From the NCBI RefSeq assembly GCF_003668965.1, contig NZ_RAWQ01000078.1:1-39014 (forward strand): DNA of 39,014 nucleotides, read 5' to 3'. Of this stretch, positions 11,116 to 38,359 are shown piece after piece. The stretch comes from Corallococcus sp. AB030. Its GTDB lineage: Bacteria; Myxococcota; Myxococcia; Myxococcales; Myxococcaceae. Numbering within the stretch: the first letter of the stretch is position 1; every line of letters begins with the position of its first letter. The notes under the pieces were generated by a model that ran no database searches, was not told the DNA's origin, and saw only the letters and a list, made by a program, of their open reading frames with translations. Made by a program: the position numbers and the translations under genes.

Positions 11116-11152
11116 GACCCGTCGCTTCGAATCCCAGACGGATGACGCATAA

Positions 11153-11188
11153 CGGCCCGGTCGACCTCTTCACGAGGTCGCCGGGCCG
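11153..11188. terminator. Bidirectional terminator-like hairpin (15-bp stem with one bulge, loop TTCAC) between convergent phhA and the LysM-peptidase gene
   Basis: CGGCCCGG(T)CGACCTC-TTCAC-GAGGTCGCCGGGCCG read directly. Confidence 0.6.
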
Positions 11189-11218
11189 AATCACTTCCGG
11201 GGGCTTTCGCCGCCGGGG

Positions 11219-12937
11219 CTACTTGTTGATGCGCACCATGGCCACGTCGTAGTGGCGCTCCGTCACGTAGCCGTTCGCGGCCTTGCCGGGGCGGTACATG
11301 TTCCCGGTCTTGTCATCCACGTAGAAGCGGTTGTTCGGGTTCGTGTCCTTGCCCGTGCTGGCGTTCTTCGTGCCCGGGTCGTGGAACGTGTAGTAGGTGC
11401 GGCCCTTGTCGTCGACGCCGCGGCCCGTGATGGTCACGAAGTGGTCCGTGAGGCCGTCCGCGTTGTAGCTCGCGTCCTTGTGGCTCACGCCCACGACCAC
11501 CGGCTTGCCGGCCTCCAGCTGCTTGTCGATGTAGCTGCGGCCCTCGGCGGCCTTCTTCGAGTCCACGTTGAGCGCGCCGACGCCGTTCTCGCTCTTGCCC
11601 ACCTGGATGCGGCGGTCCGGGCCCAGCACGGTCGCGCCGGAGTCACGCGCCATCGCCGTCGCGGCCTTGAAGCACGCCGTGTCGCTCGCGGTGTAGCCGT
11701 GGCCGTTCTCGAACTGGCTGTAGTACGGCACCTTCACGTGCACCGCCGGCTTGTCCTTGGACGGGGCCACCTGCTCCGTGTTCGCCGGGGCCGCCTCCGT
11801 GGTGGGCTTGGAGGTGTTCGTGCCCTGCGTCGTGGGCTTGCCTTCCGTGGTGCCCGGCTTCGAGCCGTTGTTCACGGACGGGGGAACCACGCCCGTGTTG
11901 GTGTTGGCCGGCTTGGTCGTGGTGCCCGACTTCTCCTGCTTCAGCATCGCGAGGGCGTCCTTCGCCTCCGACTTGAAGCGGTTGGCCACGCCCTTCTGCA
12001 CGTCCTTGGAGCTGCCGGAGAAGTGCACCAGGGTGCCGCTGGCGTTGGTGCGGCCGCGCTCGGCGTAGATGTCCTTGATGAGCTGCTCGTCGCTCACCTT
12101 CGCGGGGTCGCGCCCGTTGAGCGCCTTCTTGAAGATGTCGTCCGCCTTGCCCGGGCCGTGCTGCACGGAGGTGGACCAGGCCACGTCCCGCAGCGCCGCG
12201 GAGCGCTTGTCCAGGTCGATGCCCGTCGCCTTCTTGATGTTGGCGGCGCCCGCGTCGTAGTGCGTGGTCTTGATGTAGTCGTGCTGCGCCTTGTCGAAGC
12301 CCTTCGGGTCCTTCGCGGCCAGCTGCTTCCACGCGGCGGAGAACTCCGCGGTGCCCGGCTTGCTGCCCGACAGCGCCTTGTGGAACTCCGGGTTCGTCTT
12401 CTTCAGCGAGTTGACGAACGACTGCGCGGACCCGTTCGCGGAGGCGAACTGGTAGGAGCCGTAGGACACGCCGCCCTTGTCACCCTTGCCCGTGGACACG
12501 GTGCCGGGGCCGCGCGCCTCGTACTTGCGGCTCAGCCCGCCCAGCTCCCCGTTGGTCGCGCTGCTGGAGTTCGTGTTCGCGGCGGGCGTGGTCGCCTTCG
12601 CGCCGTCCGTGGACTGCGTGAAGCTGTCGCCCGACGTCTTCGTCCCCGCGCTCGACTTGTTGGTGCCCTTCGTGTCGAAACCGTCCTGCACCTTCAGCGT
12701 CTGGCCGGCCAGGATCTTGTTCGGATCCTTGATGTTGTTCGCCTTGGCCAGCGCGTCAACGGTCGTGTTGTAGCGCTTCGCGAGGCCGGAAAGCGTGTCG
12801 CCCGAATTGACGCGGATGTTGGAGACGGTCACGGAGAAGACCCCTCTATGTCTGGCCGCGACCAAAGGCGCCGCGGACATGCTTGGATTGCCCGGATTAT
12901 CGAAAGGCAATGCGATCAGTTTCGCATTCCCAGTCAC
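11219..12937 (-). CDS. LysM-domain protein with a central putative lysozyme-like/peptidoglycan-active domain and a C-terminal papain-like cysteine peptidase (Peptidase_C39-like) domain. No recognisable signal peptide
   Basis: LysM: [50 protein letters not shown]-terminal domain: [28 protein letters not shown]...DHFVTITG...FHDPG (Cys/His/Asp order of C39-like peptidases). Linkers are Lys/Thr/Asn/Ser-rich. Start is uncertain: GTG at 12937 or ATG at 12880, neither with a good SD. Confidence 0.65.
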
Positions 12938-13025
12938 AATCGTGTGAAACCAGTGATTCCAGCAATTTCAGTTTCAACGGATCGATCCGCTGAGACTGAA
13001 GAACCTGCCCAGGAGGACCAGTCCG

Positions 13026-14060
13026 ATGTCCAGGATCCAACCGGAATTCAAAAATTTTGCATTGCTGTTTGCCATTTGCGTCACGAGCGCGGTCCCGGAC
13101 GCCTCGGCTCAGGGGTCCGAGGGACTCACGGGGGTCTATTCGAACAAGAGCGGGACGCTCGCCATCGTCGAGGGCAGCAACGAGACGCTCGTGCACTTCG
13201 CGGGCTCGTTCCCGCAGGGCAGCAGCGCGGGCACCTGCGATTGCGCCCTGGTCGTCCAGAAGAAGACAGCCACGAATTGGTCACTTCATCAGGCGGGTGA
13301 GGAAGACGCCTGGACGCTGCGCGTCAATCCCAAGCAATTCGTCCTGGAGTCGGGTCCGTCACCGTCCTGTTGCGGCGCCGGCTATTCAGGCAAGGACACG
13401 TTCGCCCGGAGCACCTCCAAGCCGCTGAGCATCTGCAAGGTGAAGGTGTCCAAGGCGGTCTTCCACGCGTCTGACGCGGCCAACACGCCGCGCAAGGCGT
13501 TCGTGGTGTCCGGGGACGCGGTGGAGGCCTACGTCGACCCGGTGGAGCCGGACTTCCTCGCCGCGCGCTTCCAGGGGCCCCAGAAGGCCACGGCGGGGCT
13601 GCTCAAGCGCGAGGACCTGGACTGCGCGTCGGAGTCAGCGCCCACGGCCGCGAAGGCTCCCGTGGCCGCGGACAAGCTCCAGCCGTTCGCGGGGACGTGG
13701 GTGGAGCTGACGCGTCAGGGCAAGGGCTTCGTGGTGCTCAAGCCCTGCTCGGCCGCGACGCGCAGCTTCACCGTCAAGCCCGCGACGGGCGAGGTGGAGG
13801 TGCAGCTGGGCCAGGAGGCCACGACGATGAAGGTGACGTCCGTGGAGGCCGGCAAGGGCGCCGGGGCCTGGGTGCTGGGGCTCACGGCCGCGGACGGCAA
13901 GCCGGAGGCGCTCCAGTGGAAGACGGCCGACGCCGCGAAGGGCACCGTGACCGTGAGCAGCCCGGACCTCTTCTCCCAGAGCCACGACTACGTGCGCCAG
14001 GAGAAGAAGTCCGCCTTCCCGTCCAAGCAGGAGACGGGGTGCGACGAGTTCGAGCGCTAA
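13026..14060 (+). CDS. Secreted hypothetical protein (signal peptide, several Cys pairs)
   Basis: Signal peptide MSRIQPEFKNFALLFAICVTSAVPDASAQG with SD AGGAGGA upstream. Divergent from the LysM-peptidase gene across an AT-rich 88-bp spacer. Confidence 0.6.
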   Translation: MSRIQPEFKNFALLFAICVTSAVPDASAQGSEGLTGVYSNKSGTLAIVEGSNETLVHFAGSFPQGSSAGTCDCALVVQKKTATNWSLHQAGEEDAWTLRVNPKQFVLESGPSPSCCGAGYSGKDTFARSTSKPLSICKVKVSKAVFHASDAANTPRKAFVVSGDAVEAYVDPVEPDFLAARFQGPQKATAGLLKREDLDCASESAPTAAKAPVAADKLQPFAGTWVELTRQGKGFVVLKPCSAATRSFTVKPATGEVEVQLGQEATTMKVTSVEAGKGAGAWVLGLTAADGKPEALQWKTADAAKGTVTVSSPDLFSQSHDYVRQEKKSAFPSKQETGCDEFER

Positions 14061-15637
14061 CGCGCCCGTGAACGCCGCCGGGCCCGCAGGCCCCCGCCGA
14101 GCAGCAGCGCGACGAGCGCACCGGACAGGGGGCCACCCGCGGCCTGGCAGCCACCGTCATCCGAGGGCGTGCGCGGATCATCGATGGGATCCACGGGCCT
14201 GCCCGCGTCCACGGTCCCCGCATCGGAGGTGCCCGCGTCCGCGCCGGCATCGGGCGTCCCAGAGTCGGATCCGGCGTCCGTGCCCGCGTCCATCGACTCG
14301 AGCGGCGCGCAGGACGCGGCCTGGCCGGTGGCCGCGATGCACAGCCGGCCATAGCGGCCCAGGCCTTCCATCCGGCCGTCCACGACCGCCACCATCACGC
14401 GCGTGGCGTCATCCGCGGCCACCTGGGCGCGCAGGGCGTCCGGCCCGTCCACGGTCGCCACCCGCAGCACGGCGTCATCCGTGACGGCCGCGACGACCAG
14501 GTGCACCGTGGCCGGGTCGATGCCCGGCTCGGGCTCGAACGAGGCGCCCACGAAGGAAGCGCCGCCGGGGAGCTCGAAGATCCGCGAGGCCGCCGCCGCG
14601 ACGCGCACGCGGTCGATCGTGGTGGGGAGCTCCGCCGCCGTCTTCGCCACCGATGCATAGCCCTCCCCTCGCGCGTAGCCGAACCCTGGCGTCGCGCGCG
14701 GGCCGGTGCCCAGGTTCCAGGTGGCGAATTGGGCGAAGGCCGCGTCGAAGCTGGAGGCGAAGTCGCGGCGCAGACAGGTGTCCAGCAGCACCGGCCAGCG
14801 GGCCTCCGGCTGGCGCACGGACTCCTCCAGCAGCGCGACGAGCGCGCCGTCACCGTAGCGCTCGCCCACGAACTGGAAGAAGAGCCCCGCGCCGTAGATG
14901 AAGGTCACGCCCGGCCCCGCGGGGTCCAGCACCAGCGTGCTGTCCGGAGTCAGCATGTAGCCGCGGGTGAAGTGCTCCAGGTCGTCGAGCGCGGGCTCGA
15001 AGCGCTCGGTGGCCCAGACGGCGGTGCCCTCGGAGGCGACGCCGCCCAGGTCGGGCCGGTAGGCGGCCTGCACCGCGTGGAAGAACTCGTGGCTGGCCAG
15101 GATCTCCACGGCCTCTGCGTCGGACGGGTAGTTGTAGCCCGTGAAGTCGTTCTCCTGGAGCATGAAGCCGGTGCAGCGCGTGACGCCCTCCAGGCAGGTC
15201 TCCTGCCGGAAGGCGCCGTCGCCAATCCTCGCGAAGTCCACCAGGTACACGTCGAAGCGGCCGTCGCCGCCGTCGTCCCCGGCCGGATTCGTGTCGTCGG
15301 GCGGCAGGCGGAAACCCAGGTCCACGTAGGACGTCGCCACGCGTTCGTAGGTGCGCCCGACGAGCTCCACGAAGTCGGGCACGCCGGTGCCATCCGCGTC
15401 CGCTGGCGGCACGGCGTGCGTGCCCTGGCGGGTGAAGTGGATGCGGAAGCGCCCGCCCGGCGACACGACGGACTCCACCGTGTCCTCGGGCTCATAGCGC
15501 GGCGCCTGCGCGCCAGGCGAGGTGGGCCGCCCGGACTCGGCGACCCGCTTCTGTACGGCCTCCCGCTCGTGCGGGAGGCCGCGCGGGGTTCCCGCGCCGG
15601 CCAGCAGCAGGAGCAGCGTGGGAACCCCGGGGGTCAT
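14057..15637 (-). CDS. Secreted zinc metalloprotease with a C-terminal MYXO-CTERM sorting domain
   Basis: Start at MTPGVPTLLLLLAGAG (signal peptide). HEFFHAVQ zincin motif. Thr/Asp/Ala/Gly-rich linker then GGCQAAGGPLSGALVALLLGGGLRARRRSRAR (GC...hydrophobic...RRR). ATG overlaps the stop of the upstream lipoprotein gene (TGATG). Confidence 0.75.
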   Translation of the reverse strand: MTPGVPTLLLLLAGAGTPRGLPHEREAVQKRVAESGRPTSPGAQAPRYEPEDTVESVVSPGGRFRIHFTRQGTHAVPPADADGTGVPDFVELVGRTYERVATSYVDLGFRLPPDDTNPAGDDGGDGRFDVYLVDFARIGDGAFRQETCLEGVTRCTGFMLQENDFTGYNYPSDAEAVEILASHEFFHAVQAAYRPDLGGVASEGTAVWATERFEPALDDLEHFTRGYMLTPDSTLVLDPAGPGVTFIYGAGLFFQFVGERYGDGALVALLEESVRQPEARWPVLLDTCLRRDFASSFDAAFAQFATWNLGTGPRATPGFGYARGEGYASVAKTAAELPTTIDRVRVAAAASRIFELPGGASFVGASFEPEPGIDPATVHLVVAAVTDDAVLRVATVDGPDALRAQVAADDATRVMVAVVDGRMEGLGRYGRLCIAATGQAASCAPLESMDAGTDAGSDSGTPDAGADAGTSDAGTVDAGRPVDPIDDPRTPSDDGGCQAAGGPLSGALVALLLGGGLRARRRSRAR

Positions 15638-16617
15638 CACGGCAGGAAGGACCACCGCAGGCGGATCGACCCGGAGCTGGCCGTCGAGCTCACCTTGCCC
15701 GTCGTGTTGCACTCCTCCTGGATCGCGGGCTCATAGAAGTCCTTGACCTGCAGCTTCACGTGACGGCCGTCCGCCAGCTGGACCAGGTAGACCTTGTTCG
15801 TCATCTGCAGGCAGGAAGCGTAGTCCCAGTACGAGAGGGTCTGGGTCGCCGGGCTCTGAAGGCCAAACGAGTCCCCGGTGAACGTGCAGGTGTCGGGCGT
15901 GTAGTAGTTCTCCGCCACGAACTGCGCATCCGTGGGCACGGAGGTCACCGACTCGAACGTCGTGCCGTCCGCCGTCTGAGCCACGGTCACGCACGACGGG
16001 CCGGACACGCCGCTGTTGAAGCGGACGACGTAGCGGCGCACCGCGACGTCCCACGCGGTCGAATCCAGCGAGGACTGGTCATCGATGTAGACCTTCTCCA
16101 GGCCCGTCGCCGTGAAGCGCGCGTAGGTGTACGAGTCCGGCACCGCCGTGCCACCCCCGCGGCCATCCAGGTACGTGAGGTGCTCGCCCGCCGTCGTGCC
16201 CTCTTCGATCACGCCGCCGTCGGAGACGACCGTGCGGAGCCGGAGCTTGTCGATGCTCTGCTCCGTGCAGGCCACGGCGTTGCGGCACAGCTCCGCGCCG
16301 CCATCCGTGGGAGGCGTGCCCGCGTCGGTGGTCGTCCCGGCGTCAGTGGTGGTGCCCGCGTCCGTCTCACCGCCCGTGCCCGCGTCCGTCTCAGGCTCTT
16401 CGGTCGGAGTCAGGGTGCGCTGCTCGCACTTCTTGTCCGCGTTGCAGGTCCAGGCCTTGCCTGCGGGGGCCGCCCCCTCATCGCGGCAGTCGAACGCATC
16501 CACGCACTCGTCGCTGCTGCATCCCGGCGCCACCACGGCCAGCGCGAGGGCCGCCAGGGCCCCCATGCCGAACCACCGTGCACTGCTCTTCCGGACCGCC
16601 CCTTCGGGGTTGCTCAT
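15637..16617 (-). CDS. Lipoprotein with TDAG-repeat linker and a Cys-rich C-terminal domain, unknown function
   Basis: Lipobox LALAVVAPGC. Repeats ETDAGTGGETDAGTTTDAGTTTDAGTPPTDGG. ATG at 16617 with SD AAGGTGA. Translationally coupled to the MYXO-CTERM protease. Confidence 0.65.
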   Translation of the reverse strand: MSNPEGAVRKSSARWFGMGALAALALAVVAPGCSSDECVDAFDCRDEGAAPAGKAWTCNADKKCEQRTLTPTEEPETDAGTGGETDAGTTTDAGTTTDAGTPPTDGGAELCRNAVACTEQSIDKLRLRTVVSDGGVIEEGTTAGEHLTYLDGRGGGTAVPDSYTYARFTATGLEKVYIDDQSSLDSTAWDVAVRRYVVRFNSGVSGPSCVTVAQTADGTTFESVTSVPTDAQFVAENYYTPDTCTFTGDSFGLQSPATQTLSYWDYASCLQMTNKVYLVQLADGRHVKLQVKDFYEPAIQEECNTTGKVSSTASSGSIRLRWSFLP

Positions 16618-16711
16618 CGTCGTCACCTTTCACCGCGGAGACCCGCCGCCGTTCGATGGGGACGATCTCTATTCGATAACGATTCTCATTTTCAATATCG
16701 ACGATTCACTT

Positions 16712-37444: not shown

Positions 37445-38359
37445 TTAGGGGAACATCACGTTGCCAAACACGACAGTACGCGACCCATCTTCCTCCCAGA
37501 GCTTGAGTGAGAAGGGCCCTCGGGTTGTTTCTGGTGAGGCCTCGGCTTCCACAACAACCCGACCGACGTTTCCTCCTGGAATTGGCATTCGCTGCCATAC
37601 GCGGATCACCTTCAACTCCACGCCAGCCTTGCCTTTGAGCGTTGCGCCCTTCGCGAGCCATGGCTGAGCCCCGGCCTTCACGTCCAACTTGATGTCCACC
37701 GCTACGCCCGTAGTGGAGCGATAGCTCGTGATGTAAGAGGCCGTCAGGTCACTCCCAGAGACTTGGGAGAACTCAAGGGTCACGACTTGCCCGGCCACAC
37801 CACGCTCGTCCATTCCTCCGGTGGAGATCAGGCCCGCCAGCCCTCCCGGAGCATCGTGCTCGGCCATCAGTCTTGCGTTCTCATTTTGGCAGCGCAGCAA
37901 TTCCGCATGCGCCTCGCGGGCTTCCTGCTGGTACGTCTCAATCGTCCGCTTTCCGCGATAGACCTCAATGAGAGACTCGGCCTTTGCCGGATGGATCCGC
38001 AAAAGGAAGAATGCACTCAAGGGGGCTGCGCCATCCCTGAATCGCACGACCAGACGAAACCGCTCGCCTGGAGCTACACGCGACGAAGGCACCAGTCGGA
38101 TTGTGGCTTGCCCCACATCCACCAGTGCAAAGCGATCTCGCCCCTCCAACTCGACACTGTCGCGCATCAGGTCGGAATCGAAGAAGAGAGCCGTCGAGAG
38201 TCCAGAGCTGATCGCGATCTCGGGGGTGACTTGAACATCGTCCGGCGACAATTCGATGCGTCGTGCGCCCGGCACCGACGCTGAACCCTCTGACTGAGCG
38301 ACGGCCGTTTCGGCCACGAACAGCAGGCCCAGGAGCACGACGAAAGAAGAAGATGACAC
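37445..38359 (-). CDS. Secreted hypothetical protein (signal peptide; central coiled-coil region), possibly a Myxococcales paralogous-family member
   Basis: Signal peptide MSSSSFVVLLGLLFVAETAVAQS. No recognisable catalytic motifs. Confidence 0.5.
   Translation of the reverse strand: MSSSSFVVLLGLLFVAETAVAQSEGSASVPGARRIELSPDDVQVTPEIAISSGLSTALFFDSDLMRDSVELEGRDRFALVDVGQATIRLVPSSRVAPGERFRLVVRFRDGAAPLSAFFLLRIHPAKAESLIEVYRGKRTIETYQQEAREAHAELLRCQNENARLMAEHDAPGGLAGLISTGGMDERGVAGQVVTLEFSQVSGSDLTASYITSYRSTTGVAVDIKLDVKAGAQPWLAKGATLKGKAGVELKVIRVWQRMPIPGGNVGRVVVEAEASPETTRGPFSLKLWEEDGSRTVVFGNVMFP

Follow-up and report, generated by a model that had tools for sequence, protein, structure and literature searches.

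In Vibrio cholerae, the C-terminal domain of VgrG3, a type VI secretion system (T6SS) effector, acts in the periplasm as a wall glycosidase and is neutralized there by the periplasmic protein TsiV3 (PDB 4noo and 4nso). A second T6SS effector, BtaeB of the gut bacterium Bacteroides fragilis, was solved in 2025 together with its immunity protein BtaiB, a 125-residue barrel (PDB 9jdd, entitled T6SS effector-immunity complex BtaeB CTD-BtaiB, with CTD for carboxy-terminal domain); BtaeB is the protein Bfe7, for which secretion together with Bfe5 via the adaptor BtapC has been described (Li W et al. 2025, Cell Host Microbe 33:1901, cited in PMC13402684). Among myxobacteria, the LysM-bearing, wall-directed enzyme TsxE of Myxococcus xanthus and its unannotated, presumed periplasmic immunity protein TsxI (MXAN_5572/5571) mediate antagonism between kin (PMC5801462), and Corallococcus silvisoli c25j21 encodes C25GH19C, an enzyme with an N-terminal LysM, a lysozyme-superfamily domain and no signal peptide, for which its authors predicted non-classical secretion (PMC10875029). 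Here we describe a related locus in a 39,014-nucleotide stretch of the genome of Corallococcus sp. AB030 (contig NZ_RAWQ01000078.1, positions 1 to 39,014; hereafter the window). It consists of two divergent genes, one for a three-domain wall hydrolase without signal peptide (the effector) and one for a Sec-exported protein (the neighbor), which we consider fairly probable to form a self-contained module of a bifunctional peptidoglycan-hydrolase toxin and its periplasmic immunity protein. An earlier note, made from the DNA sequence of the window, had proposed a wall-targeting effector at this place, and its claims are taken up below together with the results that bear on them; the coordinates of all features are collected in Table 1.

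The effector opens with a LysM domain, as the earlier note had it, which the Pfam profile search recovered almost completely (PF01476; E-value 2.4e-15, 56.6 bits against a cut-off of 20.9, profile positions 2-42 of 43); a search of the effector against NCBIfam returned matches to the LysM region alone, all of them sub-threshold. The central domain, described in that note as lysozyme-like, is so assigned by both profile and structure searches. It spans the family T6SS_VgrG3-like_C (PF21277; E-value 2.8e-53, 181.1 bits against a cut-off of 27, profile positions 1-182 of 183) and matches the V. cholerae VgrG3 C-terminal structures 4noo and 4nso at an E-value of 1e-29 (1.1e-29 for 4noo_A), an alignment that includes its GG(V/A)SYG(S/C)YQ motif. 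The Glu...Asp pair is aligned as well: E140 and D153, the putative catalytic residues, are kept in at least 90% of 16 effector orthologs and correspond to E827/D842, the catalytic pair of VgrG3. Unlike VgrG3, the effector is not fused to a VgrG spike; it carries no gp27/gp5-like VgrG core, Pfam finds LysM alone ahead of the muramidase domain, and a second catalytic domain follows.

This second catalytic domain aligns to residues 424-590 of the 617-residue BtaeB chain 9jg8_C (entries 9jdd and 9jg8/9jg9); the match to 9jdd_A/9jg8_C, annotated as 'Peptidase C39-like domain-containing protein', has an E-value of 1.5e-21, and the catalytic Gln, Cys and His are aligned in it, whereas the third catalytic residue is Asp in the effector and Glu in BtaeB. 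Q408, C422, H499 and D520 are invariant across the 16 effector orthologs and nearly invariant in 126-147 distant homologs (each in at least 90% of 126 of them, with the His invariant). The C39-like cysteine peptidase of the earlier note is thereby sustained as homology to 9jdd_A with conserved catalytic residues; as membership in Peptidase_C39_2 (PF13529) it is not, since the match of 18.7 bits lies below the cut-off of 24 and covers the C-terminal half of the profile only. Within the family of the domain itself, 4 of 126 members reach Peptidase_C39_2 at an E-value of 1e-3. Judged from these profile matches, we regard the domain as a divergent relative within the Peptidase_C39_2 clan and do not call it a member. 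Each of the two catalytic domains falls into a family of enzymatic toxins and keeps its catalytic residues, and neither belongs to the non-enzymatic structural families that the note had allowed for.

An exhaustive HMMER search placed homologs of the C-terminal domain in 1198 representative clusters, and domain partners were counted in 126 of the best of these homologs. The fusion partners were PG_binding_1 (34), LysM (13), PG_binding_3 (9), PG_binding_2 (3) and SH3_3 (2); other wall hydrolase domains turned up singly, as did an eCIS_core domain; PAAR, VgrG and Rhs domains were absent from the 126. Because peptidoglycan-binding partners predominate, the substrate of the domain is placed in the cell wall. 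Both toxin domains are also found with other apparent export tags: a protein from a metagenome-assembled genome of Chloroflexota (P0084) fuses a WXG100 domain, of the type VII secretion system (T7SS) type, to a VgrG3C domain (a domain of the VgrG3 C-terminal type), and in two members of the C39-like family, P0155 and P0172, the N-terminus is helical (MS..LGADVD.LR.L...) and recalls the T7SS signals of actinobacteria.

The VgrG3C domain also leads to phages. Large proteins of jumbo phages, belonging to the virion or tail, share it at 34-42% identity (82 phage records, among them the 'putative VgrG protein' of Dickeya phage AD1), two PHROGs match it (phrog_34863 and phrog_26249, E-values 1e-42 to 1e-44), and in these phages the shared muramidase domain sits on a contractile injection device that breaches peptidoglycan. 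Since the effector has in addition the layout of an endolysin, with no signal peptide, an N-terminal wall-binding module and C-terminal catalytic domains, it might be read as a prophage remnant, once an endolysin or tail lysin. We hold this to be extremely improbable. The phage proteins are structural and 966-1925 residues long, whereas the effector is a free-standing chromosomal protein of 537 residues with an extra peptidase and an inhibitor-like partner; no phage record covers the C-terminal peptidase, the partner has no PHROG match, the pair is vertically conserved across genera, and a G+C content at third codon positions (GC3) of 0.95 indicates full host adaptation. No phage, holin or integrase genes occur in the window, and a prophage origin was rejected for this lack of phage context.

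The open reading frame (ORF) of 572 codons that the earlier note described at 11219..12937 on the minus strand is present, and its first 35 codons are a non-coding upstream extension. The product starts with the GTG at 12832 (ORF residue 36), begins MTVSN and has 537 residues, because the 16 orthologs align with starts at MTVSN or MTGVSN directly ahead of LysM, an AGAGGGG stands 8 nt upstream of the GTG (12841-12847), eight of nine other Corallococcus genomes have an ATG at this position in the intergenic alignment, and the same alignment contains non-triplet indels just upstream of it. A C. exiguus entry shares 99% identity with the product. LysM begins six residues after the start, and there is no signal peptide. 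The note had detected no Sec or Tat signal at either of two candidate starts; this is correct, and the corrected start, which lies further downstream still, brings no upstream in-frame signal peptide with it. A hydrophobic-segment heuristic, used in place of SignalP, recognized a signal-peptide-like N-terminus in 3 of 144 homologs of the C-terminal domain and in none of 114 of the VgrG3C type, and the missing Sec signal is therefore a family-wide property and not an annotation slip.

As a positive control for the same heuristic, 17 of 20 homologs of the divergent neighbor scored positive, so that by this measure (17/20 against 0/114 for the effector homologs) the neighbor is placed in the periplasm, the compartment in which the toxin would act. 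The earlier note had mentioned a divergently encoded, secreted, Cys-containing protein, and the neighbor is exactly that, with a signal peptide and six invariant Cys. Its 20 homolog clusters are all myxobacterial, and single-sequence and profile searches gave no Pfam, PHROG or PDB sequence match. The two barrels of the neighbor do not reflect an internal duplication (hhalign probability about 1%), and no sequence relation to TsiV3 was found. The likeness of its C-terminal barrel to BtaiB lies at the level of the fold, with 13% identity, and Foldseek gave no such match; in contrast to the small BtaiB, the neighbor has three domains.

What binds the two genes together is their inheritance. At each of the 19 loci with a full-length effector, which come from Corallococcus, Cystobacter, Archangium, Pyxidicoccus and Myxococcus sp., effector and neighbor lie side by side in divergent orientation, whereas conservation of the remaining flanking genes does not extend beyond Corallococcus; in an all-against-all gene comparison of 15 loci, no third gene was common besides these two. 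They are also lost together: in Corallococcus sp. RDP092CA (L023, 9889..10195), a single deletion of about 2.5 kb spans the spacer and runs into the 5' part of either gene, leaving the last 40 codons of the neighbor and the last 65 of the effector. The pair is thus a unit that is inherited independently of its flanks and lost jointly. Together with the Sec export of the neighbor, this co-conservation in five genera and the joint deletion make the suggestion of a 'possible immunity or partner protein nearby' the strongest part of the earlier note.

Where the pair is present, it is maintained. All ten Corallococcus orthologs of the effector are intact and of full length, and among them the ratio of non-synonymous to synonymous substitution rates (dN/dS) is 0.25-0.67 in the folded domains (0.25-0.36 in the muramidase domain) and about 1 in the linkers; the folded domains are under purifying selection and the linkers evolve neutrally. 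Outside the full-length loci, Hyalangium gracile has a solitary, truncated neighbor homolog that comprises the N-terminal part only and, by analogy, resembles an orphan immunity gene, and a metagenomic homolog, likewise of the N-terminal part only, adjoins the start of a LysM at which its contig stops.

The same data bear on the idea that the effector is an endogenous autolysin for the producer's own wall, active in myxospore formation or developmental lysis, with the neighbor as its periplasmic regulator. Myxobacteria remodel or remove peptidoglycan during development, two wall-cleaving domains behind a LysM would fit such a task, the periplasmic partner could serve as a brake, and the tightly conserved divergent promoter suggests specific regulation. 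Against this stand the dispensability and patchy distribution of the pair, which one Corallococcus strain has deleted, the differing context from genus to genus and the lack of any three-domain ortholog seen in M. xanthus. The pair moreover evolves faster than its flanks (identities are 85-93% for the effector and 84-92% for the neighbor, compared with 94-98% for flanking genes), its relatives are toxins and virion lysins, and the export route would still need explaining; we thus consider an autolysin quite unlikely.

The toxin-immunity module that we prefer would work as follows. The effector would find no substrate in the cytoplasm, its place of synthesis, and would exit by a route independent of Sec and Tat. 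Once in a periplasm, LysM would dock it on the sacculus, the VgrG3-type domain would cut the glycan strands by means of its Glu/Asp pair, and the BtaeB-type Cys-His-Asp domain would cut peptide stems or cross-links, so that the polymer would be attacked in both directions and rapid lysis could ensue. The neighbor, which Sec carries into the producer's own periplasm, would act there as inhibitor and so shield producer and kin. For the cysteine peptidase, the predicted blocker is its C-terminal barrel, in the manner of BtaiB with BtaeB, and the muramidase domain is possibly covered by its N-terminal barrel and SH3b-like part. Such an arrangement would extend the BtaeB/BtaiB toxin-immunity family to soil predators, and, as a natural fusion of glycosidase and peptidase, the effector deserves practical interest as a lysin against Gram-negative bacteria.

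Several observations weigh against a toxin-immunity module. The two genes are divergent and not operonic, and immunity proteins are usually smaller than the partner with its 344 residues. Related proteins that consist of LysM and VgrG3C only have no adjoining neighbor homolog; a 235-residue ORF downstream of one of them (L026) is unrelated to the neighbor. In Corallococcus sp. CP114039 (L025, 3190..6943), the full effector is followed by a 282-residue paralog composed of LysM and a C39-like domain (P0142) and by a lipoprotein-like Exo_endo_phos gene, and this extra LysM-peptidase paralog has no partner of its own. Finally, M. xanthus, in which the candidate delivery systems Kil and T3SS* considered below were defined, is not among the species with full-length effector orthologs. 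Apart from this, the locus of Corallococcus sp. CP114039 makes the site of the pair look like a small hotspot for toxin-type genes.

The presence of a dedicated periplasmic inhibitor has a consequence for delivery, as it would make sense only if the 57-kDa enzyme gets into the periplasm of producer cells or of their kin. Passive release, which would leave the enzyme outside an intact outer membrane, is therefore less favored than active passage through a periplasm or injection into it. This bears on the view that the effector is a predatory 'public-good' lysin released passively by lysis or in vesicles, with the neighbor either a co-secreted accessory or unrelated. Myxobacteria do release many hydrolases in a non-specific manner (PMC10433427), the amino acid composition of the effector is of the extracellular type, and Corallococcus has a LysM-GH19 enzyme that likewise lacks a signal peptide and is considered extracellular (PMC10875029); the clade of that enzyme, C25GH19C, is moreover confined to the same seven myxobacterial genera (PMC10875029). 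The likeness has its limits: C25GH19C has only one catalytic domain, of family GH19 where the effector has PF21277, and its description mentions no partner protein. Passive release would leave the partner unexplained, and we judge it very unlikely.

If the effector is injected, the obvious candidate is a classical T6SS, which would carry it as cargo on a distantly encoded VgrG/PAAR spike into neighboring cells, with the neighbor as the cognate immunity protein. The closest characterized relatives of both catalytic domains are T6SS effectors, and the combination of a signal-less effector with a periplasmic partner fits. Linkage to vgrG would not be needed, as effector-immunity loci of M. xanthus are scattered (PMC5801462; PMC10433427), and T6SS have been reported in some of the genera that carry the pair and in Corallococcus group B (L008, L009; PMC8466578). 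The locus itself, on the other hand, contains nothing of such a system. The window holds no VgrG, PAAR, Hcp, adaptor or Rhs gene and consists of housekeeping and signaling genes; no secretion gene accompanies the pair at the loci compared, which, as stated, share no third gene, and the T6SS, PAAR and Rhs export markers that the earlier note had proposed to look for occur neither in the window nor at about 20 related loci.

Nor does the protein look like loaded cargo. The effector has no loading domain of the MIX, PAAR or VgrG type, its match to BtaeB is limited to the last ~170 residues and leaves out the N-terminal loading region, and no BtapC-like adaptor gene is conserved nearby. TsxE differs as well, with an amidohydrolase_2 domain, a place in the vgrG2 operon and demonstrated T6SS dependence, whereas the Corallococcus pair is divergent and unlinked to vgrG, just as it lacks the T6SS linkage of VgrG3/TsiV3. 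The distribution also matters: according to a comparative study, C. exiguus and six related species, all carriers of the pair, have no T6SS, and most T6SS components are lost in strain EGB (PMC8466578), so that, unlike BtaeB, the effector resides in a myxobacterium reported to lack the system. The pair is intact in the reportedly T6SS-lacking strains or species of that comparison (L001-L006; P0001, P0012, P0121, P0124), where it remains under purifying selection. T6SS cargo is hence an unlikely explanation, and delivery in this species group is probably not by T6SS; the effector is apparently built from T6SS-type toxin modules that have been uncoupled from the T6SS. Of the phrase 'contact-dependent or alternatively secreted' in the earlier note, the second branch survives, given the absence of linked T6SS markers and the published lack of a T6SS in this species group.

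The route that we favor is a contact-dependent predator apparatus, either a Kil/Tad-like system acting with a needle-less type III secretion system (T3SS*) or an Afp-like contractile element. Kil (Tad-like) and the needle-less T3SS* are the systems by which myxobacteria kill and lyse prey on contact, with no effector known for either, and no contribution of T6SS to predation was found in M. xanthus (PMC10433427); an Afp-like contractile element is present in C. coralloides (PMC4122934). We speculate, with considerable reserve, that the pair could be the effector-immunity module of such a non-T6SS route, be it Kil/Tad-like with the needle-less, secretin-less T3SS* or the Afp-like element of Corallococcus. 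Export of this kind would lead through predator periplasms or inject into them and would call for a Sec-exported inhibitor as self-protection, which agrees with the layout of the pair. If this were true, the effector would be a testable candidate for the missing Kil/T3SS* cargo, and any export that bypasses the T6SS would at least represent a new route for wall-degrading toxins; if delivery were instead by an ordinary T6SS or by passive release through lysis or vesicles, the pair would be a routine addition to a known class. In a broader sense, the ~250 signal-less homologs fused to wall-binding domains may represent a general class of wall toxins that are exported without Sec across secretion systems.

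The composition of the effector was another starting point of the earlier note, and the richness in Lys, Thr, Asn and Ser that it had noticed is real. Lys accounts for 10.2% of the residues against a background of 4.1% and Asn for 6.3% against 1.8%, the four residues together reach 34.8%, the highest value of the 21 window genes, the ratio K/(K+R) is 0.73 and the isoelectric point 9.6; the bias is strongest in the two low-complexity linkers. With a K/(K+R) of 0.72, the Sec-exported neighbor shares the preference of Lys over Arg, which in both genes fits an extracytoplasmic life. The AT-rich flanks of that note were confirmed for the spacer upstream of the effector (12833..13025), the side of the promoter, and not for the downstream spacer (11116..11218, GC 0.68). 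Its suggestion of horizontal acquisition on this basis was not borne out: recent transfer was rejected on compositional grounds, as GC3 is 0.95, the coding sequence (CDS) has a GC of 0.673 against 0.692 for the window, and the AT-rich spacer, confined to the promoter side, is not unique, one further spacer of the window being AT-richer as well. The pair is nonetheless an accessory module that stands in different contexts in different genera.

The shared spacer is almost invariant across ten Corallococcus genomes. A promoter scan of it found no sigma-70 consensus; it contains two copies of GAAACTGA in minus-strand reading (12968-12975 and 12916-12923, 52 nt apart), a candidate regulator-binding site. 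On the other side of the effector, a GC-rich hairpin (CGGCCCGGTCGACCTC-TTCAC-GAGGTCGCCGGGCCG) is likely to be a bidirectional terminator. It was read directly off the sequence; a T-tract-dependent scan did not report it, and the terminator matches of that scan were at chance level.

Table 1. Features of the effector-neighbor locus (coordinates of the window).
Feature	Position	Strand	Remarks
Effector CDS, corrected	11219..12832	-	537 aa; GTG start; stop 11219-11221
LysM peptidoglycan-binding domain	12689..12814	-	ORF residues 42-83 = product residues 7-48; PF01476
Linker 1, Thr/Ser/Asn/Lys-rich low-complexity	12545..12688	-	K+T+N+S 56.5%; dN/dS 0.9-1.6; ortholog length variable
VgrG3-type C-terminal (chitosanase-fold) muramidase domain	11966..12544	-	ORF residues 132-324; PF21277
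Putative muramidase catalytic residues	E140 12518-12520; D153 12479-12481	-	aligned to KYE...NGD of 4noo_A
Linker 2, Thr/Pro/Lys/Asn-rich	11747..11965	-	K+T+N+S 46.6%; dN/dS 0.5-0.9; length variable
BtaeB-type papain-fold (C39-like) cysteine peptidase/amidase domain	11222..11746	-	ORF residues 398-572
Peptidase key residues	Q408; C422 11672-11674; H499 11441-11443; D520 11378-11380	-	
Neighbor, putative periplasmic immunity protein	13026..14060	+	344 aa
Neighbor signal peptide, residues 1-28	13026-13109	+	cleavage motif ...ASA|QG
Neighbor N-terminal 8-stranded barrel, ~residues 33-130	13122-13415	+	4 invariant Cys
Neighbor SH3b-like domain, ~residues 133-200	13422-13625	+	
Neighbor BtaiB/Tp0751-like barrel, ~residues 211-344	13656-14057	+	
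Shared divergent promoter region	12833..13025	.	GC 0.544; two copies of GAAACTGA
GC-rich hairpin	11153..11188	.	between convergent hydroxylase gene and effector

Other parts of the window deserve brief mention. Adjoining the immunity-like gene, the segment 14057..16626 (minus strand) encodes a 551-residue protein without Pfam match and an HmuY-like protein (15637..16626); this region is variably present among Corallococcus, with no tBLASTn match in L001, L004 and L006. It is followed at 16712..18988 (minus strand) by the gene for a bacterial vault-protein homolog of 758 residues, which carries Vault, Vault_2/3/4 and MVP_shoulder, the full domain set of the eukaryote-type Major Vault Protein, and is 93-98% conserved across Corallococcus. 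The valyl-tRNA synthetase encoded at 20580..24074 (minus strand) has a C-terminal tail of about 110 residues that is Lys/Ala/Pro-rich and histone H1/HC2-like, and within the adjoining response-regulator ORF (24128..25474) the GC content spikes to 0.836 at 24501..25000. At the right end of the window, where GC falls to 0.60-0.61, a DUF2381 protein of a largely myxobacterial family is encoded at 37445..38359 on the minus strand.

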